Source: an uncultured Alphaproteobacteria bacterium
GTDB taxonomy: Bacteria > Pseudomonadota > Alphaproteobacteria > Methylaequorales > Methylaequoraceae
DNA: 63,424 bases
Direction of reading: 5' to 3'
NCBI GenBank assembly: GCA_902536485.1
Contig: CACAXP010000003.1
Span: 1-63,424, forward strand
The notes beneath the pieces are model-generated. The model did not search any database. It had not been told where the DNA came from and saw nothing but the letters and a program-made list of their open reading frames with translations. Of this stretch, positions 49,222-63,329 are shown one piece after another (position 1 is the first letter of the stretch; each line of letters opens with the position of its first letter). A program made the translations under genes and the position numbers.

Positions 49222-50010
49222 TTACATGCCAGGAATTCTTAAAAGACTTGTCCCTGCTTGGTCTAACTCCTCTGCCATTTGAATTAATTTAACATGCATT
49301 TCAAATTTTCGCATTTGGTCAATTGTATTGACCATTTCTTCAACAGCATTTACATTACTTTTTTCTAAGAAGCCAGCAGCTAATTTTGCTTGTTGATTTG
49401 GTTCTATTGGAATTTGTTCTATTGTGCCGTCTTCATTTATATTAGGATCAAACCTTATTTTTCCATCAAGAGATTTTTTTAAGAGATCTCCTTCTTGTGG
49501 AACATATGTAGCGATGGTTCCAGCATTTACAGGAAGTTCTCCTGGTGCAGCTGCAATTGGTTGAATTAGAATTTCACCTTGAGAAGTTACGTTAATTTCT
49601 CTAAAAGCGGGGATTACTAATGGTTGCATGCCAGCATCAAGAACTTTATTTCCTGCCCCATCAAGTAATTCACCATTTTCATTAACGCTGAAATCTCCTC
49701 GTCTAGAAAATGCAGGCTCGGCGTTATTTGGTTGAACTACAAAATATCCGTCACCATTAATAGCAACATCCATAGGATTTTGTGTATTATCCAACATCCC
49801 TTGTTCAACACTAAACTTTCCAACCTCCCTAGCTGCAACTATTCTAGGCTCAAGACCTTCTTGTCTGTTTAAATAAATTGAACTAAAGTCTGTAACTACG
49901 TCTTGTTTAAAACCAGGTGTTGAAAGATTGGAAAGATTGTGTGCTGTTGCAACTTGGTTTTCCATTAGCATTTTCATACTATTCAATGCTGTTTGTACCA
50001 TTCTATCCAT
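49222..50010 (-). CDS. flgF: Flagellar proximal rod protein FlgF
   Basis: AHNLSN.STPGFK, T.NPMDVAI.GDGYF, LEKSNVNAVEEMV; follows flgE. Confidence 0.9.
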   Translation of the reverse strand: MDRMVQTALNSMKMLMENQVATAHNLSNLSTPGFKQDVVTDFSSIYLNRQEGLEPRIVAAREVGKFSVEQGMLDNTQNPMDVAINGDGYFVVQPNNAEPAFSRRGDFSVNENGELLDGAGNKVLDAGMQPLVIPAFREINVTSQGEILIQPIAAAPGELPVNAGTIATYVPQEGDLLKKSLDGKIRFDPNINEDGTIEQIPIEPNQQAKLAAGFLEKSNVNAVEEMVNTIDQMRKFEMHVKLIQMAEELDQAGTSLLRIPGM

Positions 50011-50045
50011 TTATAAACTCCTGATTAATTTAAATTTTCTATTTA

Positions 50046-53000
50046 TTACATTCTAATGTTAACGATTGCCTGTGTAGTAGCAGCCGTTGTTTCAATAGAT
50101 TTAGCGTTAGCCTGGAAGTTTCTTTGTGCTGTGATTAAGTTCACAAGTTCTTCAGTAATATCTACATTAGATCTTTCTAATGAACCTGATAATACAGTAC
50201 CAAAACCCTCTGCACCTGCTTCACCAACCGTCGCGGTTCCTGATACCGCAGTTTCAACGTAAGTTGCGTTACCGATCTGTTTCAAACCATTTTGGTTGTT
50301 AAAATTCGCTAGAACTAGCTTTCCCAGTGGGTTGTTCTGACCATTAGTGTAGTTTGCTCTAACTGTTCCATTGGCATCAACTTCAAGACCATCTAATCTT
50401 CCGGATGTAAAACCATCCTGATTAACTGTTGACACGAAGAATGGTTGAGCTAACTGGGTAGACTTTGTAAAGTCAATGTCAAGGTCAATACTAAAACCTG
50501 CTTCTTGTTTCTCGTAATGAACTCCTTGTTTTGGACTTAGGATTCTACCAGATTTATCAAATGTTAACTCACCTTCATCAATATAAAGTGGGAAGAAGCC
50601 ATCAACTAAGTTGGCAGGAGGTGTGGTTACCTTGTTACCATTGGCATCAACAAATAAGTTTAGTCCATCTGCGTTTGTAGCTTGTTGTAAATTATAAATT
50701 TGAGGTACTGAGCCAACACCCAAATCAACATCGTCAAGGCCAAACTTATTAGATCCTCTGACTTTAATTGTTGAGTCTCTACCTGTTGTACCATTAGTAA
50801 ATGTGAATTTATTTGTAGTGGAGTCGTATTTTACGGTAATACCTCCACCAACATTTCCTGTAGAGTCTTCAATCTGATTAATTCTTTGTTGAAGAGCCTC
50901 TGCTAATGTTGTTCCCACATAAAAACCTTGGGGAATTTCAATGACACCCGCAATACCATTTACAGATACGTTAAATATATTTTCATTAGCTTGTGTTGTT
51001 AATCTAAATACTTGAGTTAAATCCTCAGTAGCTGATGCACCAACTGCTTGCGCCGGTTGAGCTGCTAGACCTTTTGCTGCTGTTGTTATGGCATTTGTTT
51101 TTGTTACACCAACTCCAAGAAGGTTGTTATCTCCACCAAAAAAGTCTGTAGTGTCTGTTACTGAACCATCAGTTGTTGACAATAAATATCTCCCTACAGC
51201 AATGTTAGATGCAGTTTGTGCTGTGGTTACTCCAATGGCACCATTAGCTGCAATTGTTTCTCCCGTAGTTCCGCTACTAAATTCAAAAGCTTTTAACTCA
51301 CTGTTATACCCAACCTTAACTCCAAATCTTTTATCGTTAAGCTGAATCTCAGCACCATCTGCAACGAATGTAGCCGCAGAAAATTTTTCACCACCACGAA
51401 TTAGTGTTTCTGATGTGTCATCAGCAGTAGGAATACCCAGATTATTAGTTGTTGTTGCTGTTGATGCACCAAAAATTTTAAAACTGTTAAAGTTACTGTT
51501 AGTACCAGTTCCGATTAAGTTTCTGTCTACTTCAAATTGAAGTCTTTGATTTAAAACGTCATAAGTTACTTCAATGGGAGGATCTTTTTCGTCAACCCAA
51601 TGCGTTGCTGCCTTAGTTTTATCGGCAGTTGATCCATCACCATTTAAATATAAATCATGATTTGCTGCAGAAGTATTTTCACCAATACCAACAAGATTGG
51701 CTGTATTCAAAGCTGCCCCAGTAGATAGTTTGTCAGCTTTAAGTGTAAAAACTTCGTCAAAATCATCAATTATATTTTTGCTGAATTTTGTTACCATTTG
51801 TGCATTAGTATAATCATGCTTAGTAGCGGTTCCGATTTCTCTCATTACCAACTTTTTATTACTGAAGTTTTCAGTTGCGCCTTTATAAACACTTTGAGCT
51901 CCCTCAAAATAGGCTTCTACTGCAGTTGATTCTGCACTGTAAATTTTGGCTACATTATTAGCGTTTAAAGCTATAGAGAAATCACTGTCAGGAAAGTTCA
52001 TGCCCGCAGTACTGCACTCAACATAGTATTGAAGAGCTCCACCAACACTCTCCGAACCAACTGAGGCAACCGTGAATTCACGTCCATTAACAAAGTCACC
52101 ATTGGTTGTGTCAGCGGCTGCATTATAAAAATTTCCCATGAGTCTAATTTTTGAATTAGCTGAAAGAGGAGGGTTGGTTGTTCCAAAATGGAATCTTACC
52201 GTATTTTCTGATTGATCATAAACTATAGCTTGGTTTGCATTAGCTGTTGCACCACCAGGATTGTTTGACATAGCAGTCTCCGTATCATAAACATTTAATT
52301 GTGGTGTCTTGCCATAATAAGAGTAAGTCATAAATCGATTAGTTTGTATACCACTATTAGCTTGTAACTCAGCGTTTGTATTAGAAGCTGTGTTAGAGGC
52401 TGACTTAGCTTGTGCATGTTTGAAGCTAAAGACTTGGTTTTGGTCTAGAATTGTTCCTATTGTTTTACCTGAAGCTCTGTAAAATAAACTATTATCAACA
52501 CCTAATGCAGCTGCTTTATCAACAGTATCAGCAGGATACGTAACAGCATATTCATTAAGTGAAGCATTAAGACGAGCTTGTGTATGAGCTAAAAATTGCT
52601 CTCTTGTAAAATCAGGTGATGCACCAGTCAATACTATTCCCTCTCTTGTAGATACATAGGATGCACCTAGGAGGTCAACGGATACAGCTGTTGTCAAACC
52701 TGTTGATGTTCCATCAGCATTTAACTTTAATAAGTCAATAGTCAAAGTATCATCAACGTTTTGAACGATCTGTATTTTCTTATCATCACCGTAAGCAGCA
52801 TTAATTGATCTTTGAATTTCTGTAGCGAGTTGTGTAGCGTTGTAAGAACCAGGTCTAATATCGATATTTACTGGTTGGTCACTGTTATCAACATTTATTG
52901 TCATAAAGTTTTTACCCCAATAAACATTTGATGTAGTGTCACCACTTTCTCTAGTTGAGTTGAATTTCATTGGATCGGTAACAACAGTAACTGTTTTGTC

Positions 53001-53942
53001 ACCTTCTTCACCAAAATCAAAACTACTCGATTCACCAGTTACTTTGGCTGGAGTAGAGTCTACTAAAGTTTTCAAATCATCTAATTTATAAAGTGCAGAA
53101 CCTTTTCCTTCCAAGAAGTAGTTATCATCTGGAACTTTTGTTGTTTGTTGTCCAAAACGATCAATAAAGATTGGTTGCTTTGTATCATTAACAGCTTTAA
53201 CTAAATCAGGATCAATAACAGTGTCATTAATCACTAATCTTGTTTCATACTTGTTGGTAGGATCAGATGCAGAAGCAGCCTGAGTTCTTATAAAATAAAT
53301 TGTTGCAATTGTTGGGTTACCCAAATCATCAAAGATTGTAATTGATGTTGAATTGTTAAAAGTAGTGGGATCATTGGGATTAAAAACATAACCACTTGCA
53401 AATTGTGGATCATCAGAAATCACATCACTTGTTGCTGAAACGTTCACACCTAATTCAATTGACGTTGTCGCTTTTGGTGTTCCGGATGTAACTGGTAACT
53501 GGAGAGGAACGGCACTAACTAAATCTTTTGCAGTAACAGATCCATCATCGTTGACTGGAAAAGTTAGAAGAAACTGTCCTGATGAGTCAGTTACGTATCT
53601 ATCGTTGTTTACGTTAAATGATCCATTACGTGTATAAACTGTCTGTCCTGAAGTCAAAGATGGTTTTAAGGAGAAGAAACCTTGACCTGAAATTGCCATA
53701 TCAAGCACGTTAAGTGAGGAGGTAATGTTACCTTGTGTAAACTGTTGCTTAACACTTTTTAAGATTGTACCAGAACCAATAGAGGAGGAAGCGTTCTGTA
53801 ATGGAGATGTTGCAAATATATCACCAAATTCTGCTCTCGATCTTTTAAAACCGGTCGTGTTAACGTTTGCGATATTGTTCGACGTTGCCGAAATATCCGA
53901 CTGTGCTCCGTTAAGTCCTGTAAGTGCTGTATAAAATGACAT
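50046..53942 (-). CDS. flgE: Flagellar hook protein FlgE, giant (1298 aa)
   Basis: N-terminal SNNIANVNTTGFKRSRAEFGD, YTRNGSF, FlaE/D2 motif ITIFDDLGN, C-terminal LERSNVDITEELVNLITAQRNFQANAK; between flgD and flgF. Confidence 0.93.
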   Translation of the reverse strand: MSFYTALTGLNGAQSDISATSNNIANVNTTGFKRSRAEFGDIFATSPLQNASSSIGSGTILKSVKQQFTQGNITSSLNVLDMAISGQGFFSLKPSLTSGQTVYTRNGSFNVNNDRYVTDSSGQFLLTFPVNDDGSVTAKDLVSAVPLQLPVTSGTPKATTSIELGVNVSATSDVISDDPQFASGYVFNPNDPTTFNNSTSITIFDDLGNPTIATIYFIRTQAASASDPTNKYETRLVINDTVIDPDLVKAVNDTKQPIFIDRFGQQTTKVPDDNYFLEGKGSALYKLDDLKTLVDSTPAKVTGESSSFDFGEEGDKTVTVVTDPMKFNSTRESGDTTSNVYWGKNFMTINVDNSDQPVNIDIRPGSYNATQLATEIQRSINAAYGDDKKIQIVQNVDDTLTIDLLKLNADGTSTGLTTAVSVDLLGASYVSTREGIVLTGASPDFTREQFLAHTQARLNASLNEYAVTYPADTVDKAAALGVDNSLFYRASGKTIGTILDQNQVFSFKHAQAKSASNTASNTNAELQANSGIQTNRFMTYSYYGKTPQLNVYDTETAMSNNPGGATANANQAIVYDQSENTVRFHFGTTNPPLSANSKIRLMGNFYNAAADTTNGDFVNGREFTVASVGSESVGGALQYYVECSTAGMNFPDSDFSIALNANNVAKIYSAESTAVEAYFEGAQSVYKGATENFSNKKLVMREIGTATKHDYTNAQMVTKFSKNIIDDFDEVFTLKADKLSTGAALNTANLVGIGENTSAANHDLYLNGDGSTADKTKAATHWVDEKDPPIEVTYDVLNQRLQFEVDRNLIGTGTNSNFNSFKIFGASTATTTNNLGIPTADDTSETLIRGGEKFSAATFVADGAEIQLNDKRFGVKVGYNSELKAFEFSSGTTGETIAANGAIGVTTAQTASNIAVGRYLLSTTDGSVTDTTDFFGGDNNLLGVGVTKTNAITTAAKGLAAQPAQAVGASATEDLTQVFRLTTQANENIFNVSVNGIAGVIEIPQGFYVGTTLAEALQQRINQIEDSTGNVGGGITVKYDSTTNKFTFTNGTTGRDSTIKVRGSNKFGLDDVDLGVGSVPQIYNLQQATNADGLNLFVDANGNKVTTPPANLVDGFFPLYIDEGELTFDKSGRILSPKQGVHYEKQEAGFSIDLDIDFTKSTQLAQPFFVSTVNQDGFTSGRLDGLEVDANGTVRANYTNGQNNPLGKLVLANFNNQNGLKQIGNATYVETAVSGTATVGEAGAEGFGTVLSGSLERSNVDITEELVNLITAQRNFQANAKSIETTAATTQAIVNIRM

Positions 53943-53964
53943 GTGTTTTCTCCTCTATTGTTAA

Positions 53965-54669
53965 TTAATCATTTGATTTAAATTTTATTGCATCAGAAGC
54001 AGAGATCTCTCCATAATCTTTTGTTTCTAATATTACATCCTCAGTATTTTTTGGTGCGGATGCGGCAATAACCTTGTTATAAACGGCTGTTGTCAAGCCG
54101 TCACTTGCTTCACCATTTCCAGCATAAGCTTGAATGGTTAAGCGTGTTTTATCTTTTCTGATGTCTTCAGGTATATCTACCCAGCTAAATCCAACCAAAC
54201 CTTTTTCATTAGAACCTAAATTCATAGTATGAACAATTTCTCCAGATGGACTTGTAAAAGTTAGACCAACATCATTAGAATATCCCGGTAAGTCAACAAC
54301 CCCATGAATTTCTCCCTTGTCATCAGGGCTAGCGACCTGACCAGGTACTAGAACAGAATGTCCAAGAAATTGTGCAGCTGTTGCTACTCTATTAGGTTCA
54401 AGCTTTGAACCCAAATTTGTCAAATTATTGTTTATTTCAGTAATTCCCGTTACAGTTGAAAATTGAGCCATTTGGGCAATAAAATCTCCATTATCCATGG
54501 GTGCAAAAGGATCTTGATTTTGAAGCTGTGCAGTCATAAGTTTAAGGAAATCTTCTTGACCTAAAGTATTTTTATTTCCTTGTTTTTGAACTTCTTCTTG
54601 TGTTTTTACACCAAGTTTTGAAAGTATTGCGTTAAGTGATTGTTCAGATGATTTATTAATGTCAGTCAT
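53965..54669 (-). CDS. flgD: Flagellar hook capping protein FlgD
   Basis: LGQEDFLKLMTAQLQNQDPF.PMDNGDFIAQMAQFSTV. Confidence 0.96.
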   Translation of the reverse strand: MTDINKSSEQSLNAILSKLGVKTQEEVQKQGNKNTLGQEDFLKLMTAQLQNQDPFAPMDNGDFIAQMAQFSTVTGITEINNNLTNLGSKLEPNRVATAAQFLGHSVLVPGQVASPDDKGEIHGVVDLPGYSNDVGLTFTSPSGEIVHTMNLGSNEKGLVGFSWVDIPEDIRKDKTRLTIQAYAGNGEASDGLTTAVYNKVIAASAPKNTEDVILETKDYGEISASDAIKFKSND

Positions 54670-54682
54670 ATTTTACCTCAGA

Positions 54683-55096
54683 TTATTTTCCCATATTTGC
54701 TGTTTTAAGCATTAGAGCTTTAATTGTTGTAATTACTTCTACGTTATTTTGATATTGTCTAGACGCTTCAAGCATATCTACATATTCTTCTTCAACATCC
54801 ACTGGAGCTTTGTATATAAAACCTTCGTTATCAGCCATAGGATGACCTGGCTTAAAAACTTTTATTGGTTCAATATCCATCTTTTCGACAGTTACAGCGT
54901 CAACTGTGGAAATTCCTCTTTTTCTTATTAAATCAAAATATTTTGTTTCAAAAACTGGTTTGACTGGCTTGTAGGCATCCTGAGGGTTTTGGGCAATGTT
55001 ATCAGCATTTGCTAAATTACTTGCAATTGCATTAAGCCTTACAAGTTGAGCACCCATTGCTCTTTGAGCTATTTTATATACATTTTTAATATCCAT
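54683..55096 (-). CDS. flgC: Flagellar rod protein FlgC
   Basis: RLNAIASNLANA, PGHP.AD.EG, V...EE.VDMLEASRQYQNN. Confidence 0.95.
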   Translation of the reverse strand: MDIKNVYKIAQRAMGAQLVRLNAIASNLANADNIAQNPQDAYKPVKPVFETKYFDLIRKRGISTVDAVTVEKMDIEPIKVFKPGHPMADNEGFIYKAPVDVEEEYVDMLEASRQYQNNVEVITTIKALMLKTANMGK

Positions 55097-55485
55097 TATT
55101 CGCCCCTAATTGCACTCATTAAACCTGATAGCTTAGAGTTAATAAAATTTAGTGTTGTTTGGTATCTCATAGTATTTTCAGCAAATTCTGTTTGTTCAAT
55201 TGATAATTCAACAGTATTTCCATCCATTGAAGGGTGAAGGGGTTTTCTGTATTGAACTTTTCCAGGAAGATTCTTGGATGCAAGTGCAATGTGTCCGTCT
55301 TTAGAAGTTTTTAAAGGACCTACGCTTAAAGCTTTTGCTAATTCTACGTCAAAGTCTAAATCTCTAGCTTTAAAATTAGGAGTTGCTGCATTAGCTATAT
55401 TAGAAGCAAGAATTTCATTTCTATTGTTTCTAATTCTTAATGCATTGCTGTAAACCTCGAATTGTTGTTTAATACTGTCAGTCAT
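55096..55485 (-). CDS. flgB: Flagellar rod protein FlgB
   Basis: LASNIANAATPNFKARDLDF, DGNTVEL..EQ. Confidence 0.96.
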   Translation of the reverse strand: MTDSIKQQFEVYSNALRIRNNRNEILASNIANAATPNFKARDLDFDVELAKALSVGPLKTSKDGHIALASKNLPGKVQYRKPLHPSMDGNTVELSIEQTEFAENTMRYQTTLNFINSKLSGLMSAIRGE

Positions 55486-55517: not shown

Positions 55518-55533
55518 TGCAAATTAAATGCCA
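55518..55533 (-). promoter_or_regulatory. Sigma54 (-24/-12) promoter of flgBCDEF
   Basis: Minus strand TGGCAT-TTAAT-TTGCA, 32 nt upstream of the flgB ATG. Confidence 0.85.
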
Positions 55534-55551
55534 AAAGAAAGGATAATGAAA

Positions 55552-56679
55552 ATGGATGAAAAATTTTCTATGAATACTGAGCTTGATCCTGAGGTAGTTA
55601 AGGTAAGAGATAAAATAATAAGTAAAATAGGTAATAAGCCATTAGATGAAGTTAACTCAATAATAAAAAAGTTACTAAATGATCAAACAGATGAAGTTAC
55701 TAGGCTTGGTTTGCTAGCAGCAAGAGTAAAAATTATAAGAGCAAAAATTGAGTCGTTATACGAACGAAAAGTAGAAATAAAACAAAAAGTTGTTTCTGAA
55801 CCAAGTGAAAAAGCTCTAGTTCAAGACCAAAAAGAAGATAAAGATAAAGATAAAGATAAAGATGAAAAATGGATTCGAGTTGTTATGTTGCAATCAGGCG
55901 ATGTTAACGGTAAACAAATAGATAAAGGAGTTGTTTTGGATGTTAAAGAGGAAGATGGAAAAAAATTAATTGAGGCAAAAAAAGCAGAAATAGTGGTGGA
56001 AAAAAAACCTGAAGTGAAAGAAGAAAAAGGAGAAAAAGAAGACGTAAAGCAAAAAAAAGATACAAAAGAGGAGGAAAAGCCGGCGGAAGATAAAAAAGAT
56101 GAAATAAAGCCTGAAAAAGAAGAAAAAGAAGAGGTAAAGGCAGAAAAAGAAGAGGTAAAGGCAGAAAAAGAAGAAAAAGAAGAGGTAAAGGCAGAAAAAG
56201 AAGAAAAACTAGATGAAAAAGATAGAGAAAAACTAGTCGTTAAGAAGGATGATGAAGAAAACGTTAGTCAATCTAAGGCTGACGTAGAGAAAACAGAAAC
56301 ATCTGCTGAAGATAAAACCACAACACCCGAGCCGGAAGAAATAGTTAAAAACGAAGATGAAGCAGAAAACAATTTGGAAGAGAATAAAAAAGGTGAAGAA
56401 GATGAGGGGAGTAAGGACCTATTAGAGCGACATCAAGAAAGAGTAGAGGAGGTTAATGAGGAAAAGTCTCCAGACACTTATGAGAAAGATTCTAATACAA
56501 AAAGTAAGGATGACGAATTTTCTGAAAATAAAAAAAATGAAAGTGAACCTGAAACAAAAGAGGTTTCAACAATTAATGATTCAAATAAAGATGAATCCAA
56601 AGGTGATATAACAACTGAAAATAAAAAAGATATCAAGGAGGATAATAGAGATAATGAAGTTTCAAACCAAAAAGAATAG
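55552..56679 (+). CDS. Hypothetical protein: helical N-terminus, small globular module, long Glu/Lys/Asp-rich tail
   Basis: Long ORF; start placed at ATG 55552 (AAAGGA at usual spacing) because ATG 55528 lies inside the flgB promoter. Confidence 0.75.
   Translation: MDEKFSMNTELDPEVVKVRDKIISKIGNKPLDEVNSIIKKLLNDQTDEVTRLGLLAARVKIIRAKIESLYERKVEIKQKVVSEPSEKALVQDQKEDKDKDKDKDEKWIRVVMLQSGDVNGKQIDKGVVLDVKEEDGKKLIEAKKAEIVVEKKPEVKEEKGEKEDVKQKKDTKEEEKPAEDKKDEIKPEKEEKEEVKAEKEEVKAEKEEKEEVKAEKEEKLDEKDREKLVVKKDDEENVSQSKADVEKTETSAEDKTTTPEPEEIVKNEDEAENNLEENKKGEEDEGSKDLLERHQERVEEVNEEKSPDTYEKDSNTKSKDDEFSENKKNESEPETKEVSTINDSNKDESKGDITTENKKDIKEDNRDNEVSNQKE
55837..55863 (+). repeat. In-frame hexamer microsatellite (GATAAA)4.5 encoding DKDKDKDKD
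   Basis: Read directly from sequence. Confidence 0.9.
56113..56208 (+). repeat. In-frame tandem repeat: three 21-bp units GAAAAAGAAGAGGTAAAGGCA (EKEEVKA) interleaved with GAAAAAGAA
   Basis: Perfect units at 56122, 56143 and 56173. Confidence 0.9.
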
Positions 56680-57028
56680 TTATAAATATTTTAATATTAT
56701 CTATTTGTTAATTTTCTTTCCTCTTTTAATTGGATGTGAAGACTTGTTTTTAAGGTTTAAATATGAAACATACGAATGCACAAAAAATTATTTTAAATTA
56801 AAGAGTGTATTCATAAAAAATTATGATCCAGGAGACTTAGTAGATGTTGAAATTGACAATAGTGGCTATAAGTTAAAAATTAAAGAAAATAATGAAAGCC
56901 TTATGATTATTGAGCGGGAAGATCCATTCATATCAATTAGGATTGAAAAAAAAACATCAAAGCTAAATGTTAACTTTAAAAACCATATTCAAAATATTGA
57001 ATGTAGTAAGCATGTTTTCAAAATGTAA
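56654..57028 (+). CDS. Hypothetical lipoprotein
   Basis: Basic N-terminus, hydrophobic stretch and lipobox LIGC. Confidence 0.6.
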   Translation: MKFQTKKNSYKYFNIIYLLIFFPLLIGCEDLFLRFKYETYECTKNYFKLKSVFIKNYDPGDLVDVEIDNSGYKLKIKENNESLMIIEREDPFISIRIEKKTSKLNVNFKNHIQNIECSKHVFKM

Positions 57029-57790: not shown

Positions 57791-58105
57791 CTACTCTTTC
57801 ATTTCTTTATAAGCGTCAAACAAAGCATCGGCTATTTTATCTAAATCAATAGGATAAGAGCCATTAGCAATAGCATTCTTAATTCGCGATGTTGCGGCTT
57901 GATCTATTGGAGGTTCTTTTGCCATATCCTTAATTTTCTCTTTAGTTACGAATTTGGAAACCTCGCTACTGTCATATTTTTGTTTAGCGTTAGAATGATC
58001 GATTCCTTTAACCTGAATACTACTAGATTTCTTGGAATCAGAACTCACTTTGTTACTTCCAGCACTGCCAAGACTGTTTAGATTATTTTTAATTTGATCA
58101 ACCAT
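57791..58105 (-). CDS. flgM: Anti-sigma28 factor FlgM
   Basis: C-terminal PPID......IK.AIANGSYPIDLDKIADAL. Confidence 0.9.
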   Translation of the reverse strand: MVDQIKNNLNSLGSAGSNKVSSDSKKSSSIQVKGIDHSNAKQKYDSSEVSKFVTKEKIKDMAKEPPIDQAATSRIKNAIANGSYPIDLDKIADALFDAYKEMKE

Positions 58106-58139: not shown

Positions 58140-58166
58140 TAAACGTCACTTTTTTAGTTTTGTTTA
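58140..58166 (-). promoter_or_regulatory. Possible sigma28 (FliA) promoter of flgM
   Basis: TAAA-N15-GACGTTTA against consensus TAAA-N15-GCCGATAA; weak in AT-rich DNA but correctly placed. Confidence 0.4.
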
Positions 58167-58855
58167 GTTTTTAACACAACTTTTTTTTCATTTTTTGCAT
58201 ATCCGTTAATAATTTTTCCACTTTTGATGTTTTTAACTCTAATTTTTCCCATAAAATCAGCACTATTTAGAGCAATTCCTTCTTCTTTAATTGTAATACT
58301 TCCAACCTTATTTTCTATTATTATAATGCTATTCTTTTCTATTAGCCAATCCTTTTCAAAATTTGAATGATATAGTGCTTTTCCAGATGAAATAGAATTT
58401 TTAAGTTTTTTTCCAACTATTTTACTTTTTTCTTCAACCAAATTATTCTTTATAATAATAGATTTCTTGACATAAACTAAGTCATCCTCATTAATCACTG
58501 CTCCAGCAGACTTAGGGTTTTTAAGAGTTATAACATTAAATTTTTTTTTATTTTTTTCTTTTAAACTATATGATTTTTTATTTTTGGATTTATTTCTTGT
58601 TATTAAACTCCATTCGTTAGGATATAAACAACTGATTTTAATAAGATTGAATGAACCTGAAATATCTGAGATTAACATATTATTATTTGTGCAAGAGGGA
58701 TATTTCAAACTCTTGAGGAGTTTAACATTACCAGATTGATTATTTTTTTTTAACCATTCATTAACTAAACCTTCTATTTCCTTTCCATTAATTGAGTTAG
58801 AGGCTTTGGAGTCACAAAAAAAACTAATGAAAACAAAAAACAAAAAGAGCTTCAT
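58154..58855 (-). CDS. flgA: P-ring assembly chaperone FlgA
   Basis: Signal peptide, SAF-like domain, C-terminal G.ALNS...G.IRVKN..SG.II; upstream of flgM. Confidence 0.85.
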   Translation of the reverse strand: MKLFLFFVFISFFCDSKASNSINGKEIEGLVNEWLKKNNQSGNVKLLKSLKYPSCTNNNMLISDISGSFNLIKISCLYPNEWSLITRNKSKNKKSYSLKEKNKKKFNVITLKNPKSAGAVINEDDLVYVKKSIIIKNNLVEEKSKIVGKKLKNSISSGKALYHSNFEKDWLIEKNSIIIIENKVGSITIKEEGIALNSADFMGKIRVKNIKSGKIINGYAKNEKKVVLKTKQN

Positions 58856-58860
58856 ATTAT

Positions 58861-59298
58861 TTAGTTTCCGTAAAAATAAATATGATTTCTTTGGCTTGAT
58901 TTTGAATTTGAATTTTTGTCAGGAGCTTTTCTTACTAAATTCATTATCTCACTTACAGAAGGAATTTTTAAAACTTTTCCTGCGTACAAAAAATGAGGAT
59001 TTTCTCTTACAAATGCATGCTTGTTTATTTCTATTAAGGATATTTCAATGATTTTCATATTTAAACCTGTATTACCATAATATTTATTAAGAATTTCGCT
59101 AAGTGATTCACCTTCCTTAACTTTATGGTTGACAGAATAGTTATGATCTTTAATAAACCTATTGTTTTTATTGATATTTTTTTTGTTTAACTCGTTGTTT
59201 AAATTTTGATTATTGTATTCAAGAATAACAAAGGGTTCATTGGATTTGATTTCAAATCCTAAAAAAGTAATAAAAAGTATAATAAAAAAATTCTTCAT
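58861..59298 (-). CDS. Secreted stand-alone LysM protein (FimV/HubP-type LysM)
   Basis: VKEGESLSEI...INKHAF..ENPHFLYAGKVLKIP; ATG 59298 lies 1 nt after the flgT stop. Confidence 0.7.
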   Translation of the reverse strand: MKNFFIILFITFLGFEIKSNEPFVILEYNNQNLNNELNKKNINKNNRFIKDHNYSVNHKVKEGESLSEILNKYYGNTGLNMKIIEISLIEINKHAFVRENPHFLYAGKVLKIPSVSEIMNLVRKAPDKNSNSKSSQRNHIYFYGN

Positions 59299-59299
59299 T

Positions 59300-60478
59300 T
59301 TAATTTGTAAACCTAATAATTTTTCCATTCAAATCTTCTGTTTTATTTGATGGATTTAGTATATCAAGAATTGAAAAGTTTCCGCTCGTTTTTTTTACTG
59401 TCACAGCAACCCAATCATTCATGGAATGATTAATGTTCCTGTTAGACACGTAACCTACATTTCCAATTTCAAGACCATGATTAATTCCTATTGGTACGGT
59501 TAGGACCCCTTTAACAATTTCAGCTTTTGCTTCAAGAGGATGGCACTTTAATTCATCAATAACTCTGAATTGAATTTTTGATAAACTCTTTGAAATTAAA
59601 CTTGTAATTTTATCATAAGGGACTCTGTAAAAAGCATCAACATGAGAATATCCAGTTTCATTTCCTAAATAAATTGAAAATGTGTAGTTCAATGAATCAA
59701 TTAAATTTAATCTTGGTCCTTCATAAATGTTCAGTTTCAAATTTATTATCAATTCATCGGAAAATCTTGTTAGCCTTCCTTTTCCTCTATTAATATTTAT
59801 TATTGGATGTAAACCAAATTCACCACTTTTTATTGAATCAACTTCGCCCTCCACCAGAGAAGTATAATCTAGTTCTAGGGGTTTGTTCGCTAATGTTTTT
59901 GGATTAAAGGCAAATCCAGTTAAATCTATTAGATTTAGGTTATTAAACTCTTTTAAATTTTTATATATATTTGAGGAAATAATTGATGGAAATTTTTGAC
60001 TGTAAGCCGGAAGACTGCTAGACACCCTAAAATAAGGTCTTAGATAACTTAAATTAATTTGTTCTCTAGCATCACAGTTTTGGGTTTCATTAACGCTTAC
60101 AAGAAAAGCTCGTATTTTAACTAAAAAGTGTGTAGGATCCTCTTTTTCCTCAATGATAACAAAATCTTTTATAGAAGATGAGGGTCTGATTAATATATTT
60201 TCATTTAGAGATGTATTTGTGTTCACAGAAGAATAACCATCAACTTTTGCACCAGCTTGAAGGCTTGCCATATACAAAGCATCATCTAAAGCTCTTTTTT
60301 TTGCCGTTTCTACATCACCTTCAATAATGACAGCACGTCCTTCAGAAACTACTTCAGTGTGCTTAAATTCTTGGGCGACAAGAAAAGTTGTAAAAAATAA
60401 AAAAAATAATAGGGATGAAAAAAAGAGTGTTAGCTCTTTTAGTAATCCATCAACTTTATTATAAGGAATTCTTTTCAA
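59300..60478 (-). CDS. flgT: Flagellar H-ring/T-ring assembly protein FlgT
   Basis: FlgT N-domain VSEGRAVI..GD...AKKRALDDAL..A...AGA.V and C-domain C.PLEAK...V.IG..HGL..G. Confidence 0.82.
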   Translation of the reverse strand: MKRIPYNKVDGLLKELTLFFSSLLFFLFFTTFLVAQEFKHTEVVSEGRAVIIEGDVETAKKRALDDALYMASLQAGAKVDGYSSVNTNTSLNENILIRPSSSIKDFVIIEEKEDPTHFLVKIRAFLVSVNETQNCDAREQINLSYLRPYFRVSSSLPAYSQKFPSIISSNIYKNLKEFNNLNLIDLTGFAFNPKTLANKPLELDYTSLVEGEVDSIKSGEFGLHPIININRGKGRLTRFSDELIINLKLNIYEGPRLNLIDSLNYTFSIYLGNETGYSHVDAFYRVPYDKITSLISKSLSKIQFRVIDELKCHPLEAKAEIVKGVLTVPIGINHGLEIGNVGYVSNRNINHSMNDWVAVTVKKTSGNFSILDILNPSNKTEDLNGKIIRFTN

Positions 60479-60490
60479 TCTAATATCCCT

Positions 60491-60994
60491 TTACAATGTT
60501 TGTGCTTGTCTAAACAAATAAGCAACCATGTCTTGGTCAATCTCCAAAACAGTCTCATAGGTATCTGAACCAGTTGGATTAATCCTTACAGTTCTGGCTC
60601 CTCTGATAACTCCAGAGACAATACCCCTGAATGTGTCATTTTGAACCATTAAATCAATTACAGTTGTATTACTGTCAACTTTTAAGCCATGTATTTGTTC
60701 AGCTAATTCTCTCATTGCAGACATTCTTGCTGCTCTGATAGCCATAAGCCTTCTTTGTTCAATATTTTGCCCTGGTTGGGTCGAAACTACAGCATATCCA
60801 GTTGCTGTTAGAGTAGGGAAGGTAATTGATGCACCGTCTAATAATTCTCTAGTTTTGTTTAATTGGTTTGTTGGTGCGGAATAGTCATCACCTAAATTAT
60901 TTTTACTAAGTTTAGGTTGATTTAGATTATCCATTAAATTTGTTGCACAGGATTGCATAAATAAAATTGCAATTGCTAAAACTATATTTTTCAT
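60491..60994 (-). CDS. flgP: Flagellar lipoprotein FlgP (LPP20 family)
   Basis: Lipobox MQSC; ATGYAVV...RLMAIRAARMSAMRELAEQIHGL.V. Confidence 0.88.
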   Translation of the reverse strand: MKNIVLAIAILFMQSCATNLMDNLNQPKLSKNNLGDDYSAPTNQLNKTRELLDGASITFPTLTATGYAVVSTQPGQNIEQRRLMAIRAARMSAMRELAEQIHGLKVDSNTTVIDLMVQNDTFRGIVSGVIRGARTVRINPTGSDTYETVLEIDQDMVAYLFRQAQTL

Positions 60995-61193: not shown

Positions 61194-63329
61194 ATGGATT
61201 TAGTTTTACGACAGTTTGAAAAAGCAAATTTTTTAAGTTTGATTAGAACGTTCAGTATACCTGTTGGAATTATAATTTTGATTACCATGATGGTGATTCC
61301 CTTAAGTCCATGGTTACTAGATTTGTTATTAACATCAAATTTGCTTATTTCCTTACTTGTATTGATGGTAGCTTTACAAGCTTTTAGACCATTAGATTTT
61401 TCAAGTTTTCCAACAGTATTATTATTTGCCACCGTTTTGAGATTAGGACTCAATGTGGCATCAACCAGAGTTATCTTAAAAAACGGTCATTCAGGAACAG
61501 ATTCAGCTGGAAGTATAATTGAAGCTTTTGGTGAGTTTGTAATGTCAGGAAGTTACGCAGTTGGTCTTTTTGTTTTTGCAATTTTAGTAATAATCAATTT
61601 AATTGTAATTACAAAAGGTGCTGGAAGAGTGTCTGAAGTAGCAGCAAGATTTACTTTAGATGCAATGCCTGGAAAACAGATGGCTATTGACGCGGATCTC
61701 AATGCAGGGATATTAACTAGTGAAGAGGCGAAAGAGCGAAGAAAAGAAATCGCTAAAGAGGGGGAATTTTATGGGGCTATGGATGGTGCAGCGAAGTTCG
61801 TAAAAGGAGATGCGATAGCTGGTATTTTAATTCTTATTATTAATATAATTGGTGGGTTAATTATCGGTACTACACAACATGACTTAAGTTTATCTGAATC
61901 AGCTGAAACTTATATTCTATTAACAGTAGGTGATGGTCTTGTTGCTCAAATTCCTTCATTATTATTAGCCATGGCTACTGCAACAATTGTTACAAGAATC
62001 TCTTCTGACAACGATGATTTAGCAGGACAGATTTCAAATCAAATGGGATTATCAAAGGCGTGGGTTCCAGTTTCTGCAGTTCTGTTATTATTTGGTTTAG
62101 TTCCAGGAATGCCAAATACTTTATTCCTTGCTGGCTCGCTTCTTTCTGGAATTATAGCATGGTACACATCAAAGCAATCTGATGATTCTGATTCTAATCT
62201 TAATAAAGAGGATACTAGCGAAGAAAATCCAGGAAAAATTGATATGGATGAAGTTTCAGATAATTCTTCAATTTCTCTTGACCTTGGTTATGGACTTATT
62301 TCAATGGTTGATTCAAATGATAAAAAATCTGCAGGACCACTTATTTCAAAAATAACTGGTATAAGAAGACAAGTTTCTAAAGATCTGGGTTTTATTATTC
62401 CCAATGTGAGAGTCAGAGATGACTTATCATTAGACGCAAATGCCTATCAAATTAAAATTGGTCACACTATTGTTGCTGAAGATTTAATATATGCTGACAG
62501 AAAATTAGCTATGCCAGGTAACGAAACTCAAATGAAAATTCAAGGAATTAAAGTTAAGGATCCATCCTTTGGATTAGATGCGTATTGGATTGAAAAGCAC
62601 ATGGTCGCAAAAGCTGAATCTCAACATTATATGGTTGTTGAACCTGAGGCAGTAATTGGTACTCATTTGAACCAAGTTTTATTAAAATATGCAGGAGAGT
62701 TGTTAAGCCAAGACGATGTTCAGTCATTACTAGATAATTTGTCAAAAGTTAATCCTCAACTAGTTCAATCAGTTGTTCCAAAACTAGTTCCTTTACATCA
62801 TTTAACATTGATTTTAAGAAATCTTTTAGTAGAGAGAGTTCCAATAAGTGATCTGAAAAAAATTTTAGAAGCTTTGTCTAACCTTTCAGAAAAAAAATTA
62901 TCTCCAGATGAACTATCAGAAGCTGTAAGACCAGTTATTTCATCTTTGTTGATTCAAAAAATATCAAATGTAAAAGATTCCTTGAACATAGTTACATTTA
63001 ATCCTGATTTTGAACAAATGCTTATTACAATGGCAAAAAAAAGCAGTTCAGAGGGATTATTAATTGATCCAAGTTTAGCTAAGGAAATGATTCAATCGAT
63101 TATAGAAATAGGTGAGAAGTTTTCTGCTGATAACAGTTCCTTAGTTATTGTTACCTCGCCTATAATAAGAAAAGATCTGTCAATTCTATTGCGCCAGCAT
63201 GTAGAAGACGTTGTAGTTCTATCTTTCACAGAGCTACCTGAAAACAAAAGAGTGAAAGTAATTGCTACAGTTGGAGAAAAAATATCAACTTCAGATAAGG
63301 AGAAAAATAATGAAAACGCAAACATTTAA
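61194..63329 (+). CDS. flhA: Flagellar export gate protein FlhA
   Basis: FSSFPTVLL, ITKGAGRVSEVAARFTLDAMPGKQMAIDADLNAG, GAMDGAAKFVKGDA, GDGLVAQIP. Confidence 0.98.
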   Translation: MDLVLRQFEKANFLSLIRTFSIPVGIIILITMMVIPLSPWLLDLLLTSNLLISLLVLMVALQAFRPLDFSSFPTVLLFATVLRLGLNVASTRVILKNGHSGTDSAGSIIEAFGEFVMSGSYAVGLFVFAILVIINLIVITKGAGRVSEVAARFTLDAMPGKQMAIDADLNAGILTSEEAKERRKEIAKEGEFYGAMDGAAKFVKGDAIAGILILIINIIGGLIIGTTQHDLSLSESAETYILLTVGDGLVAQIPSLLLAMATATIVTRISSDNDDLAGQISNQMGLSKAWVPVSAVLLLFGLVPGMPNTLFLAGSLLSGIIAWYTSKQSDDSDSNLNKEDTSEENPGKIDMDEVSDNSSISLDLGYGLISMVDSNDKKSAGPLISKITGIRRQVSKDLGFIIPNVRVRDDLSLDANAYQIKIGHTIVAEDLIYADRKLAMPGNETQMKIQGIKVKDPSFGLDAYWIEKHMVAKAESQHYMVVEPEAVIGTHLNQVLLKYAGELLSQDDVQSLLDNLSKVNPQLVQSVVPKLVPLHHLTLILRNLLVERVPISDLKKILEALSNLSEKKLSPDELSEAVRPVISSLLIQKISNVKDSLNIVTFNPDFEQMLITMAKKSSSEGLLIDPSLAKEMIQSIIEIGEKFSADNSSLVIVTSPIIRKDLSILLRQHVEDVVVLSFTELPENKRVKVIATVGEKISTSDKEKNNENANI

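Follow-up and report, generated by a model that had tools for sequence, protein, structure and literature searches.

The window analysed here is a 63,424-nucleotide (nt) stretch of DNA from an uncultured alphaproteobacterium of the GTDB family Methylaequoraceae (GenBank assembly GCA_902536485.1, contig CACAXP010000003.1, positions 1 to 63,424), which carries on its minus strand, at 50046..53942, a flgE gene encoding a giant flagellar hook protein of 1298 amino acids (aa), three times the usual size, in which approximately 850–880 residues are nested within the D2 domain. The open reading frame (ORF) runs uninterrupted from an ATG start through 1298 codons to a stop, for a product of 138 kDa with a pI of 4.6, and a ribosome-binding site, AGAGGAG, can be read from the sequence at 53950..53956 (minus strand), 7 nt before the ATG at 53940–53942; the plus strand of 50046–53942 has stops throughout. 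An earlier interpretation of this DNA made from its letters alone (here, the sequence-only reading) had proposed a giant FlgE with a D2-nested insert at the same coordinates but without a strand; the coordinates hold, the gene is on the minus strand, and ORF, Pfam, NCBIfam and PDB alignments agree on the proposed architecture.

Assignment to FlgE is supported by both ends of the protein and by genomic context. The N-terminal D0 helix is recognised by Pfam Flg_bb_rod (PF00460) at aa 3–33 (33.3 bits; cut-off 20.7), the C-terminal D0 helix by Flg_bbr_C (PF06429) at aa 1252–1295 (54.6 bits; cut-off 23), and the FlgE/F/G D1 domain by PF22692 at aa 83–127 (40.9 bits), with FlgE_D2 (PF07559; 54 bits, cut-off 22.7) split into two stretches, of which the first begins at aa 180. 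Alignment to the NCBIfam FlgE equivalog models is restricted to aa 1–256 and 1125–1296 (NF004240, 1–256; NF005286, 1125–1295), and scores remain under the equivalog cut-offs (NF004240, 374.5 bits vs 472; NF004238, 371.3 vs 400) because the ∼850-aa insert separates the two aligning halves; the subfamily model TIGR03506 is passed (273.5 vs 70.25). Solved FlgE chains of 434–437 aa (PDB: 9yee, 8z5u) align to aa 4–247 and 1154–1297 only, at an E-value of ∼1e-69, and the FlgE D2/hook structures 9wx3, 8z5y and 3a69 are matched by Foldseek at probability 1.0. The gene lies in the order flgB-flgC-flgD-flgE-flgF (Pfam and NCBIfam), with flgB, flgC and flgD upstream and flgF downstream. By domain content and context, the 1298-aa protein is the flagellar hook protein FlgE of this organism. 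No second FlgE was found. In relatives of 98–99% completeness, the other matches are FlgF/FlgG-type frames of 263–281 aa, and the giant flgE is the sole hook gene found; the window's own genome is a draft of 62.6% completeness in 49 contigs. That the gene in its entirety came from a phage or another mobile element was considered and rejected, given the standard FlgE core, the standard operon and the status of flgE as the only hook gene.

The core of the protein is thus divided into two blocks flanking the insert, all on the minus strand. Residues 1–150 (53493..53942; PF00460, PF22692) comprise the D0 N-terminal helix, a linker and the N-terminal part of D1, beginning with MSFYTALTGLNG, an N-terminus common to all full-length giants found; residues 151–261 (53160..53492; PF07559, NF004240, Foldseek 9wx3/8z5y) form the N-terminal half of D2; and residues 1111–1298 (50049..50612; PF06429, NF005286, PDB chains) supply the C-terminal half of D2, the C-terminal part of D1 and the second D0 helix. 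Both D2 landmarks named in the sequence-only reading are present, ITIFDDLGN at aa 201–209 and GELTFDKSG at aa 1124–1132, and its estimate of some 880 aa between nt 50590 and 53210 was close to the placement reached here, aa ∼262–1110 (nt 50613–53159; ∼90 kDa). Nesting within D2 follows from the split Pfam, NCBIfam and PDB alignments, with an outward orientation of the insert presumed from known hook architecture. Three regions can be distinguished within it: a conserved N-arm (aa 262–460; 52563..53159), delimited by identity, dN/dS (the ratio of nonsynonymous to synonymous substitution rates) and a predicted local distance difference test score (pLDDT) mostly of 85–95; a variable middle (aa 461–780; 51603..52562), marked by identity, indels and dN/dS and proposed to be an exposed tip; and a conserved C-arm (aa 781–1110; 50613..51602), defined by identity, dN/dS, self-matches and its occurrence in 199 species genomes, and shared more widely than any other part of the insert. 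The insert is rich in Thr, Ala, Gly and Asn (11.5, 9.9, 8.8 and 8.6%, respectively), as had been remarked in the sequence-only reading, but this is no special property of the insert, the flanking core being nearly identical in composition. No low complexity was found in the insert, and Tandem Repeats Finder returned only trivial matches. A Pfam search of the insert alone at E ≤ 10 gave chance matches only (RM6_Med14, Nyv1), and no family covers it.

More distant internal similarity is apparent in both arms. Comparison of the protein with itself by blastp gave no self-matches; profile alignment with hhalign pairs aa 874–894 with aa 1034–1054 (probability 90%), corresponding to two FxFxSGTTG hairpins in the C-arm (aa 874–897 and 1034–1060), and aa 349–382 with aa 990–1023 (probability ∼25%), corresponding to a strand–strand–helix unit in the N-arm (aa ∼345–383; PVNIDIRPGSYNATQLATEIQRSIN) and its second copy in the C-arm (aa 987–1023). 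A hidden Markov model (HMM) built from either unit recovers both matches in every giant tested (independent E-values of 1e-3 to 1e-9). On these sequence matches, the two arms of the insert contain an ancient internal duplication.

Conservation is distributed unevenly along the protein. In an alignment of 56 non-redundant giants, identity to the window protein is 53–93% in the N-terminal core (aa 1–250), 53–79% in the N-arm (aa ∼250–460), 14–47% in the middle (aa ∼460–780), 50–74% in the C-arm (aa ∼780–1125) and 67–93% in the C-terminal core (aa 1125–1298), and the middle of relatives is further diversified by module swaps and by insertions of 120–170 aa after aa ∼520, ∼720 and ∼755–768. Values of dN/dS among members of the window's family, obtained by the Nei–Gojobori method, are 0.005–0.039 for the core, 0.016–0.049 for the N-arm, 0.024–0.073 for the C-arm and 0.052–0.201 for the middle, such that constraint on the arms nearly equals that on the core and is relaxed three- to eightfold in the middle relative to the arms. 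These regional values place the whole insert under purifying selection.

The insert is predicted to be folded rather than disordered. In a first AlphaFold2 run, based on 48 close homologues, the mean pLDDT was 51, with confidence confined to aa ∼449–799, and a Foldseek search with that model was uninformative. A second run on aa 150–1190 (1041 residues), for which giants from SAR116, PS1 and metagenomes were added to give an alignment of 70 sequences, reached a mean pLDDT of 88.2 and a predicted template modelling score of 0.77, with 579 residues at pLDDT ≥ 90 and 17 below 50; the middle (aa 461–780) scored about 90 in both runs. The predicted fold is mostly β, with few helices, including those of both duplicated units. 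Searching the PDB with the whole 1041-residue model by Foldseek matched only FlgE D2/D1 parts (9wx3, 8z5y, 9go6, 3a69), and a family profile compared with all PDB sequences gave matches confined to core positions 1–250 and 1086–1260. Against predicted viral structures, the best Foldseek matches were myovirus tail sheath proteins (E-value 1e-4, probability 1.0; 134–239 of the 1041 columns), a lead that one domain may resemble surface domains of another helical tube, without implying membership of that family.

Giant FlgE proteins are characteristic of the window's family. Among 41 related genomes searched, the giant flgE is present without internal stops in 22 genomes of that family, where every sampled genus has a FlgE of 1262–1551 aa; most of these genomes encode 1262–1309 aa, and long variants of 1539–1551 aa occur in five. 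The FlgE frames of other families in the same sample span 406–886 aa. In metagenomes, a query of the insert (aa 250–1130) retrieved at least 872 protein clusters at 90% identity and 412 representatives at 50% identity, 68 of them with E < 1e-30, including full FlgE proteins of 1090–1650 aa. The conserved C-arm, represented by a 6-sequence alignment, was also sought in one genome for each GTDB species and found in at least 199 species genomes, with about 70 full-length ORFs of 1244–1547 aa in independent single-amplified genomes (SAGs), metagenome-assembled genomes (MAGs) and long-read MAGs. The best 80 of the 199 include SAGs and MAGs labelled Alphaproteobacteria, ‘Pelagibacteraceae bacterium TMED13’ and ‘Rickettsiales bacterium MED...’, representing the window's own clade (GC 31–35%), together with SAR116/Puniceispirillales, one PS1-clade SAG, and ‘Rhodobiaceae’ and ‘Rhodobacteraceae/Paracoccaceae’ MAGs. 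When 400 genomes were sampled evenly across the class, the C-arm occurred in 6 of them, from 5 other families, mostly within intact frames of 1254–1516 aa. Outside the window's family, both arms recur in SAR116, in PS1 and in further marine groups. Giant FlgE is hence rare over the Alphaproteobacteria at large, yet common to several marine planktonic lineages; in databases, the proteins are labelled simply ‘flagellar hook protein FlgE’. The sequence-only reading would have been countered if FlgE proteins above 1200 aa were both common and already structurally described; in these lineages they are common, but no structural description of such proteins was found.

The genes adjoining flgE belong to the same minus-strand block. 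The hook cap gene flgD, of ordinary size (234 aa; 53965..54669; PF03963, NF005176), is separated from flgE by 22 nt and is preceded by the proximal rod genes flgC (54683–55096) and flgB (55096–55485) at the head of the operon, TIGR01395 and TIGR01396 scoring above their cut-offs for the flgB/flgC pair; the block ends with flgF (262 aa; 49222..50010; NF009280, TIGR02490). The flgE stretch (window 50001–54000) has a G+C content of 37%, compared with 26–31% over most of the window, probably owing to a composition rich in Gly, Ala and Thr. Further flagellar genes are found at 57791–58105 (flgM), at 58154–60994 on the minus strand (consecutively flgA, a LysM protein, a FlgT_N-containing protein and an LPP20/FlgP-like lipoprotein) and at 61194–63329 (flhA, on the strand opposite to flgE), a set that suggests outer motor-ring components of the polar-flagellum kind. 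Two plus-strand ORFs diverge from flgB (55528–56679, 383 aa; 56654–57028, 124 aa), neither with a Pfam match at E ≤ 0.01.

Enlargement of the hook protein is accompanied by that of the hook-associated protein FlgK. In the window's own genome, flgK lies on another contig (C8:29378–34750, minus strand; locus L087:9381–14750) and encodes 1790 aa with normal ends (Flg_bb_rod 6–35, FlgK_D1 97–332, a D2-like stretch at 342–417, and Flg_bbr_C 1747–1784) around an unannotated insert of ∼1300 aa; all genomes of the family that have FlgK encode 1697–1803 aa. The flagellins on the same contig (C8:17524–28398) comprise three minimal proteins of 264–268 aa and one of 524 aa, which has a true match to Flagellin_IN (PF07196), beside FliD (552 aa) and FlgL (427 aa), and this asymmetric set is repeated across the family. 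A 306-aa gene between flgK and flgL (C8:28446–29366, minus strand) has a weak glycosyltransferase-like match of GT-D fold (E-value 3.5e-4, below cut-off), which may hint at glycosylation of flagellar proteins.

Overall similarity between the FlgE and FlgK inserts of the window's own genome is not significant, but the two share a PVxIDI..xSY.A..L-type motif. The extra module of ∼250 aa in the 1537–1551-aa FlgE variants has its homologue in part of the FlgK insert (47–48% identity); aa 784–1009 of the 1537-aa FlgE of a sister genus (P0103) match residues 881–925, 1135–1312 and 1386–1472 of the FlgK of the window's own genome at 39% identity (E-value 2e-20). The FlgK-insert repeats so matched have the form ‘HGxxTGDxVxY ... 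GLTxGQTYYAIKVDxNxFKLA’, for which Pfam offers only a weak match to E1_FCCH. This homology points to movement of outer modules between FlgE and FlgK. A non-hook metagenomic protein of 2492 aa (P0141), with 28 ALTTAQ repeats, an FlgE_D2 domain and an FlgD Ig-like domain but neither D0 nor D1, also carries the C-arm module (44% identity to aa 934–1129), and the outer module of the hook therefore recurs in a further giant protein.

As the universal joint of the flagellum, the hook determines by its stiffness the turning of polar flagellates and the load under which the flagellum survives. It is built of 11 protofilaments with an axial rise of ∼4.1 Å per subunit, with D0 on the inside and D2 on the outside, and contains ∼120–130 subunits compared with thousands of flagellins. 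Given this architecture, the insert would lie outside D2, and each of ∼120 hook subunits would bear its domains, producing a tube 26–35 nm thick, compared with Salmonella hooks of 18 nm and Campylobacter hooks of 28 nm. The estimate is calibrated on Campylobacter, where an extra 50 kDa widens the hook to 28 nm vs 18 nm at a packing fraction of 0.41 (PMC5097172); an extra 96 kDa yields ∼35 nm at the same packing, or 26 nm if the shell is solid. A thick outer shell had also been put forward in the sequence-only reading, and remains the natural interpretation because the insert is genuine, predicted to be folded, under purifying selection and not an assembly fusion. The same reading considered the gene a large cost for a streamlined genome; the real cost lies in coding space, and the cost in protein, at ∼120–130 subunits, is small. 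In keeping with the conservation of the arms and the variability of the middle, the arms are proposed to form an inner shell contacting the lattice and the middle an exposed outermost layer. The 1790-aa FlgK would extend this decoration to the hook–filament junction, while the filament, mostly of ∼266-aa flagellins, would stay thin.

Taken as a whole, the explanation judged best, by a modest balance of probability, is a giant FlgE whose outer domains form a shell with a mainly mechanical role; that this shell reinforces or stiffens the universal joint, by analogy with D3/D4 in Campylobacter, is given a little under even chances. With such stiffening, a single polar flagellum that has the motor-ring proteins FlgT and FlgP in its gene set would be less prone to break or buckle. 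A mechanical role is favoured because hook and junction are enlarged while most filament proteins are not, because constraint is as strong on the arms as on the core, and because Campylobacter offers an experimentally supported precedent for reinforcement. Several considerations weigh against this explanation. In the closest solved hook, that of a polar flagellum (8z5u), FlgE is only 437 aa long, and a polar flagellum therefore needs no giant hook protein as such; a shell that is thick and tightly bonded would work against the bending of a universal joint, in view of which the outer layers may pack loosely and contribute little to stiffness; a role at the environmental interface would likewise be consistent with the raised dN/dS of the middle and with its turnover of domains; and the domain borders, radial order and lattice contacts are deduced from conservation rather than seen.

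The main rival holds that the outer domains serve chiefly as such an interface, as a shield against phage or grazers, in antigenic variation, or in the binding of particles or polysaccharides, with mechanics secondary. It draws on the behaviour of the middle 320 aa, which evolve three to eight times faster than the arms, with dN/dS of up to 0.20 and whole domains gained, lost and swapped, as well as on the phage tail sheath surface domains found as best non-flagellar fold matches (E-value 1e-4, probability 1.0) and on the weak glycosyltransferase-like gene adjoining flgK. An interface function would, however, be expected on the filament, because the hook is a tiny share of the flagellar surface, and most flagellins, at ∼266 aa, are without outer domains; moreover, the arms, which make up ∼530 of the 850 inserted residues, come close to the core in conservation, as a purely diversifying surface would not, and dN/dS is well below 1 wherever measured. 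An interface role is rated improbable, at roughly one part in five of the overall expectation. Still less probable, at about half that weight, is a collar or sheath-like adaptor formed by giant FlgE and giant FlgK at the hook–filament transition, which might, for example, anchor or protect the junction, its key function lying in contacts between the outer domains of FlgE and FlgK rather than in hook stiffness. The constant presence of a giant FlgK (1697–1803 aa) in every genome of the family having FlgK, the FlgK-like module of the long FlgE variants and the motif common to both inserts would suit such a structure, but the FlgE and FlgK inserts of this genome lack significant overall similarity, and 16 genomes of other families have no close FlgK match, none of these 16 having been shown to carry a giant FlgE.

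An artefactual or non-functional origin, whether as an assembly chimera, a pseudogene read-through or a disordered low-complexity spacer, might be suspected from the incomplete state of the draft genome and from the mean pLDDT of 51 obtained with the shallow alignment. The same architecture is nevertheless intact in well over 90 independent assemblies, full-length versions occurring in the 22 family genomes and ∼70 further independent SAGs and MAGs; the gene has no stops, a good ribosome-binding site and no repeats; selection on it is strongly purifying; and the deeper alignment raises pLDDT to 88. With intact relatives, purifying selection and a confident predicted fold, this explanation is refuted, its residual probability being negligible. 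A disordered insert or an assembly fusion, either of which would have refuted the sequence-only reading, is in this way contradicted in favour of a real insert that is predicted to be folded. Between a mechanical role specific to hook and junction and one in adhesion or phage evasion, a giant FlgK alongside mostly minimal flagellins leads us to infer the former.

Among solved hooks, extra outer domains are present only in Campylobacter and Helicobacter, and the D3/D4 domains are stated to be confined to Epsilonproteobacteria (PMC5097172). An unrelated and much larger outer module, in FlgE proteins of 1244–1650 aa, is here found conserved in heterotrophic bacterioplankton that rank among the most abundant, and in the window's family is paired with a FlgK of 1700–1800 aa. 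Together, flgE and flgK occupy ∼9.3 kb of a genome of about 1.3–1.5 Mb, and their retention under strong purifying selection in so small a genome implies that the structure should matter for fitness. A broader proposal, tentative and somewhat less likely than not to be right in all its parts, is that several marine lineages (the window's small-genome family, SAR116/Puniceispirillales, PS1 and others) share a super-thick hook of ∼30–35 nm, with a giant junction in addition in the window's family, and that modular outer domains have been exchanged between FlgE and FlgK. If true, such armour would alter the mechanics of the universal joint, giving, for example, a buckling-resistant hook and a different mode of swimming in very small, fast polar flagellates. 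SAR116 isolates are in culture (PMC12262181), and if they carry the gene, the diameter, structure and mechanics of the hook would be directly testable.

In literature searches, no mention of a giant FlgE or a giant FlgK came up for SAR116 or for any other marine Alphaproteobacteria; flagella are unmentioned in two large SAR116 genomics papers, the more recent of which mentions neither motility nor hooks. The giant marine FlgE is undescribed so far, with neither a Pfam family nor a solved structural relative for ∼850 of its residues. For the core, the closest solved relatives are the FlgE of the ‘L-hook of the polar flagellum’ (8z5u/8z5y) and 9yee (E-value 1e-69 with the single sequence, 1e-100 with the profile), in which the region spanned by ∼930 residues here (query 223–1153) is occupied by ∼77 (214–290); likeness to the polar-flagellum system extends to the FlgT and LPP20/FlgP-like genes of the window. 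Among other enlarged axial proteins, the giant flagellins of the marine Gammaproteobacteria Bermanella marisrubri and Oleibacter marinus, two species in which thick flagellar filaments are reported (PMC6248924), resemble the present case in exceeding 1000 aa and in carrying the insertion in an outward-facing region, but are filament proteins, whereas here it is the hook and junction proteins that are giant and most flagellins are minimal. The duplicated unit of the insert (xVxIDxxxGxYTxxxLAxxIxxRIN) resembles the flagellin IN-type motif (PF07196) by eye only: PF07196 has no match in the window FlgE at E ≤ 10, and a sub-threshold match in a distant giant FlgE (P0157; E-value 0.0054, 17.3 bits vs a cut-off of 22.7). 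Identity of the unit with Flagellin_IN is not established, the unit HMM giving an independent E-value of 0.5 against the 524-aa flagellin and PF07196 being unmatched.

The best functional analogy is offered by the D3/D4 hooks of Campylobacter jejuni and Helicobacter (5jxl, 5az4, 5npy), in which, as here, extra domains are nested in D2. In those hooks the domains lie outside the D0–D1–D2 core. In Campylobacter, they widen the hook to 280 Å, compared with 180 Å, add contacts between subunits and render it more robust (PMC5097172), and the C. jejuni FlgE of 865 aa was described by Yoon et al. as ‘one of the longest’; the ∼850-aa insert of the window protein is about twice the size of the ∼460 aa added in Campylobacter. 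The three structures align to the core only (query 1145–1297, profile 1086–1260), leaving the insert unmatched at E ≤ 1, and the D3/D4 fold is not recovered by Foldseek with the whole model, as opposed to single domains, as query (5az4, E-value 0.055, probability 0.03; 5jxl, E-value 0.46, probability 0.04). Since likeness to D3/D4 is lacking in both sequence and predicted fold, and the insert belongs to free-living marine Alphaproteobacteria whereas D3/D4 belong to Epsilonproteobacteria, the insert is likely to be of independent origin. Should a super-thick hook indeed be shared by these marine lineages, it would constitute a second, independent and larger-scale invention of the Campylobacter solution.

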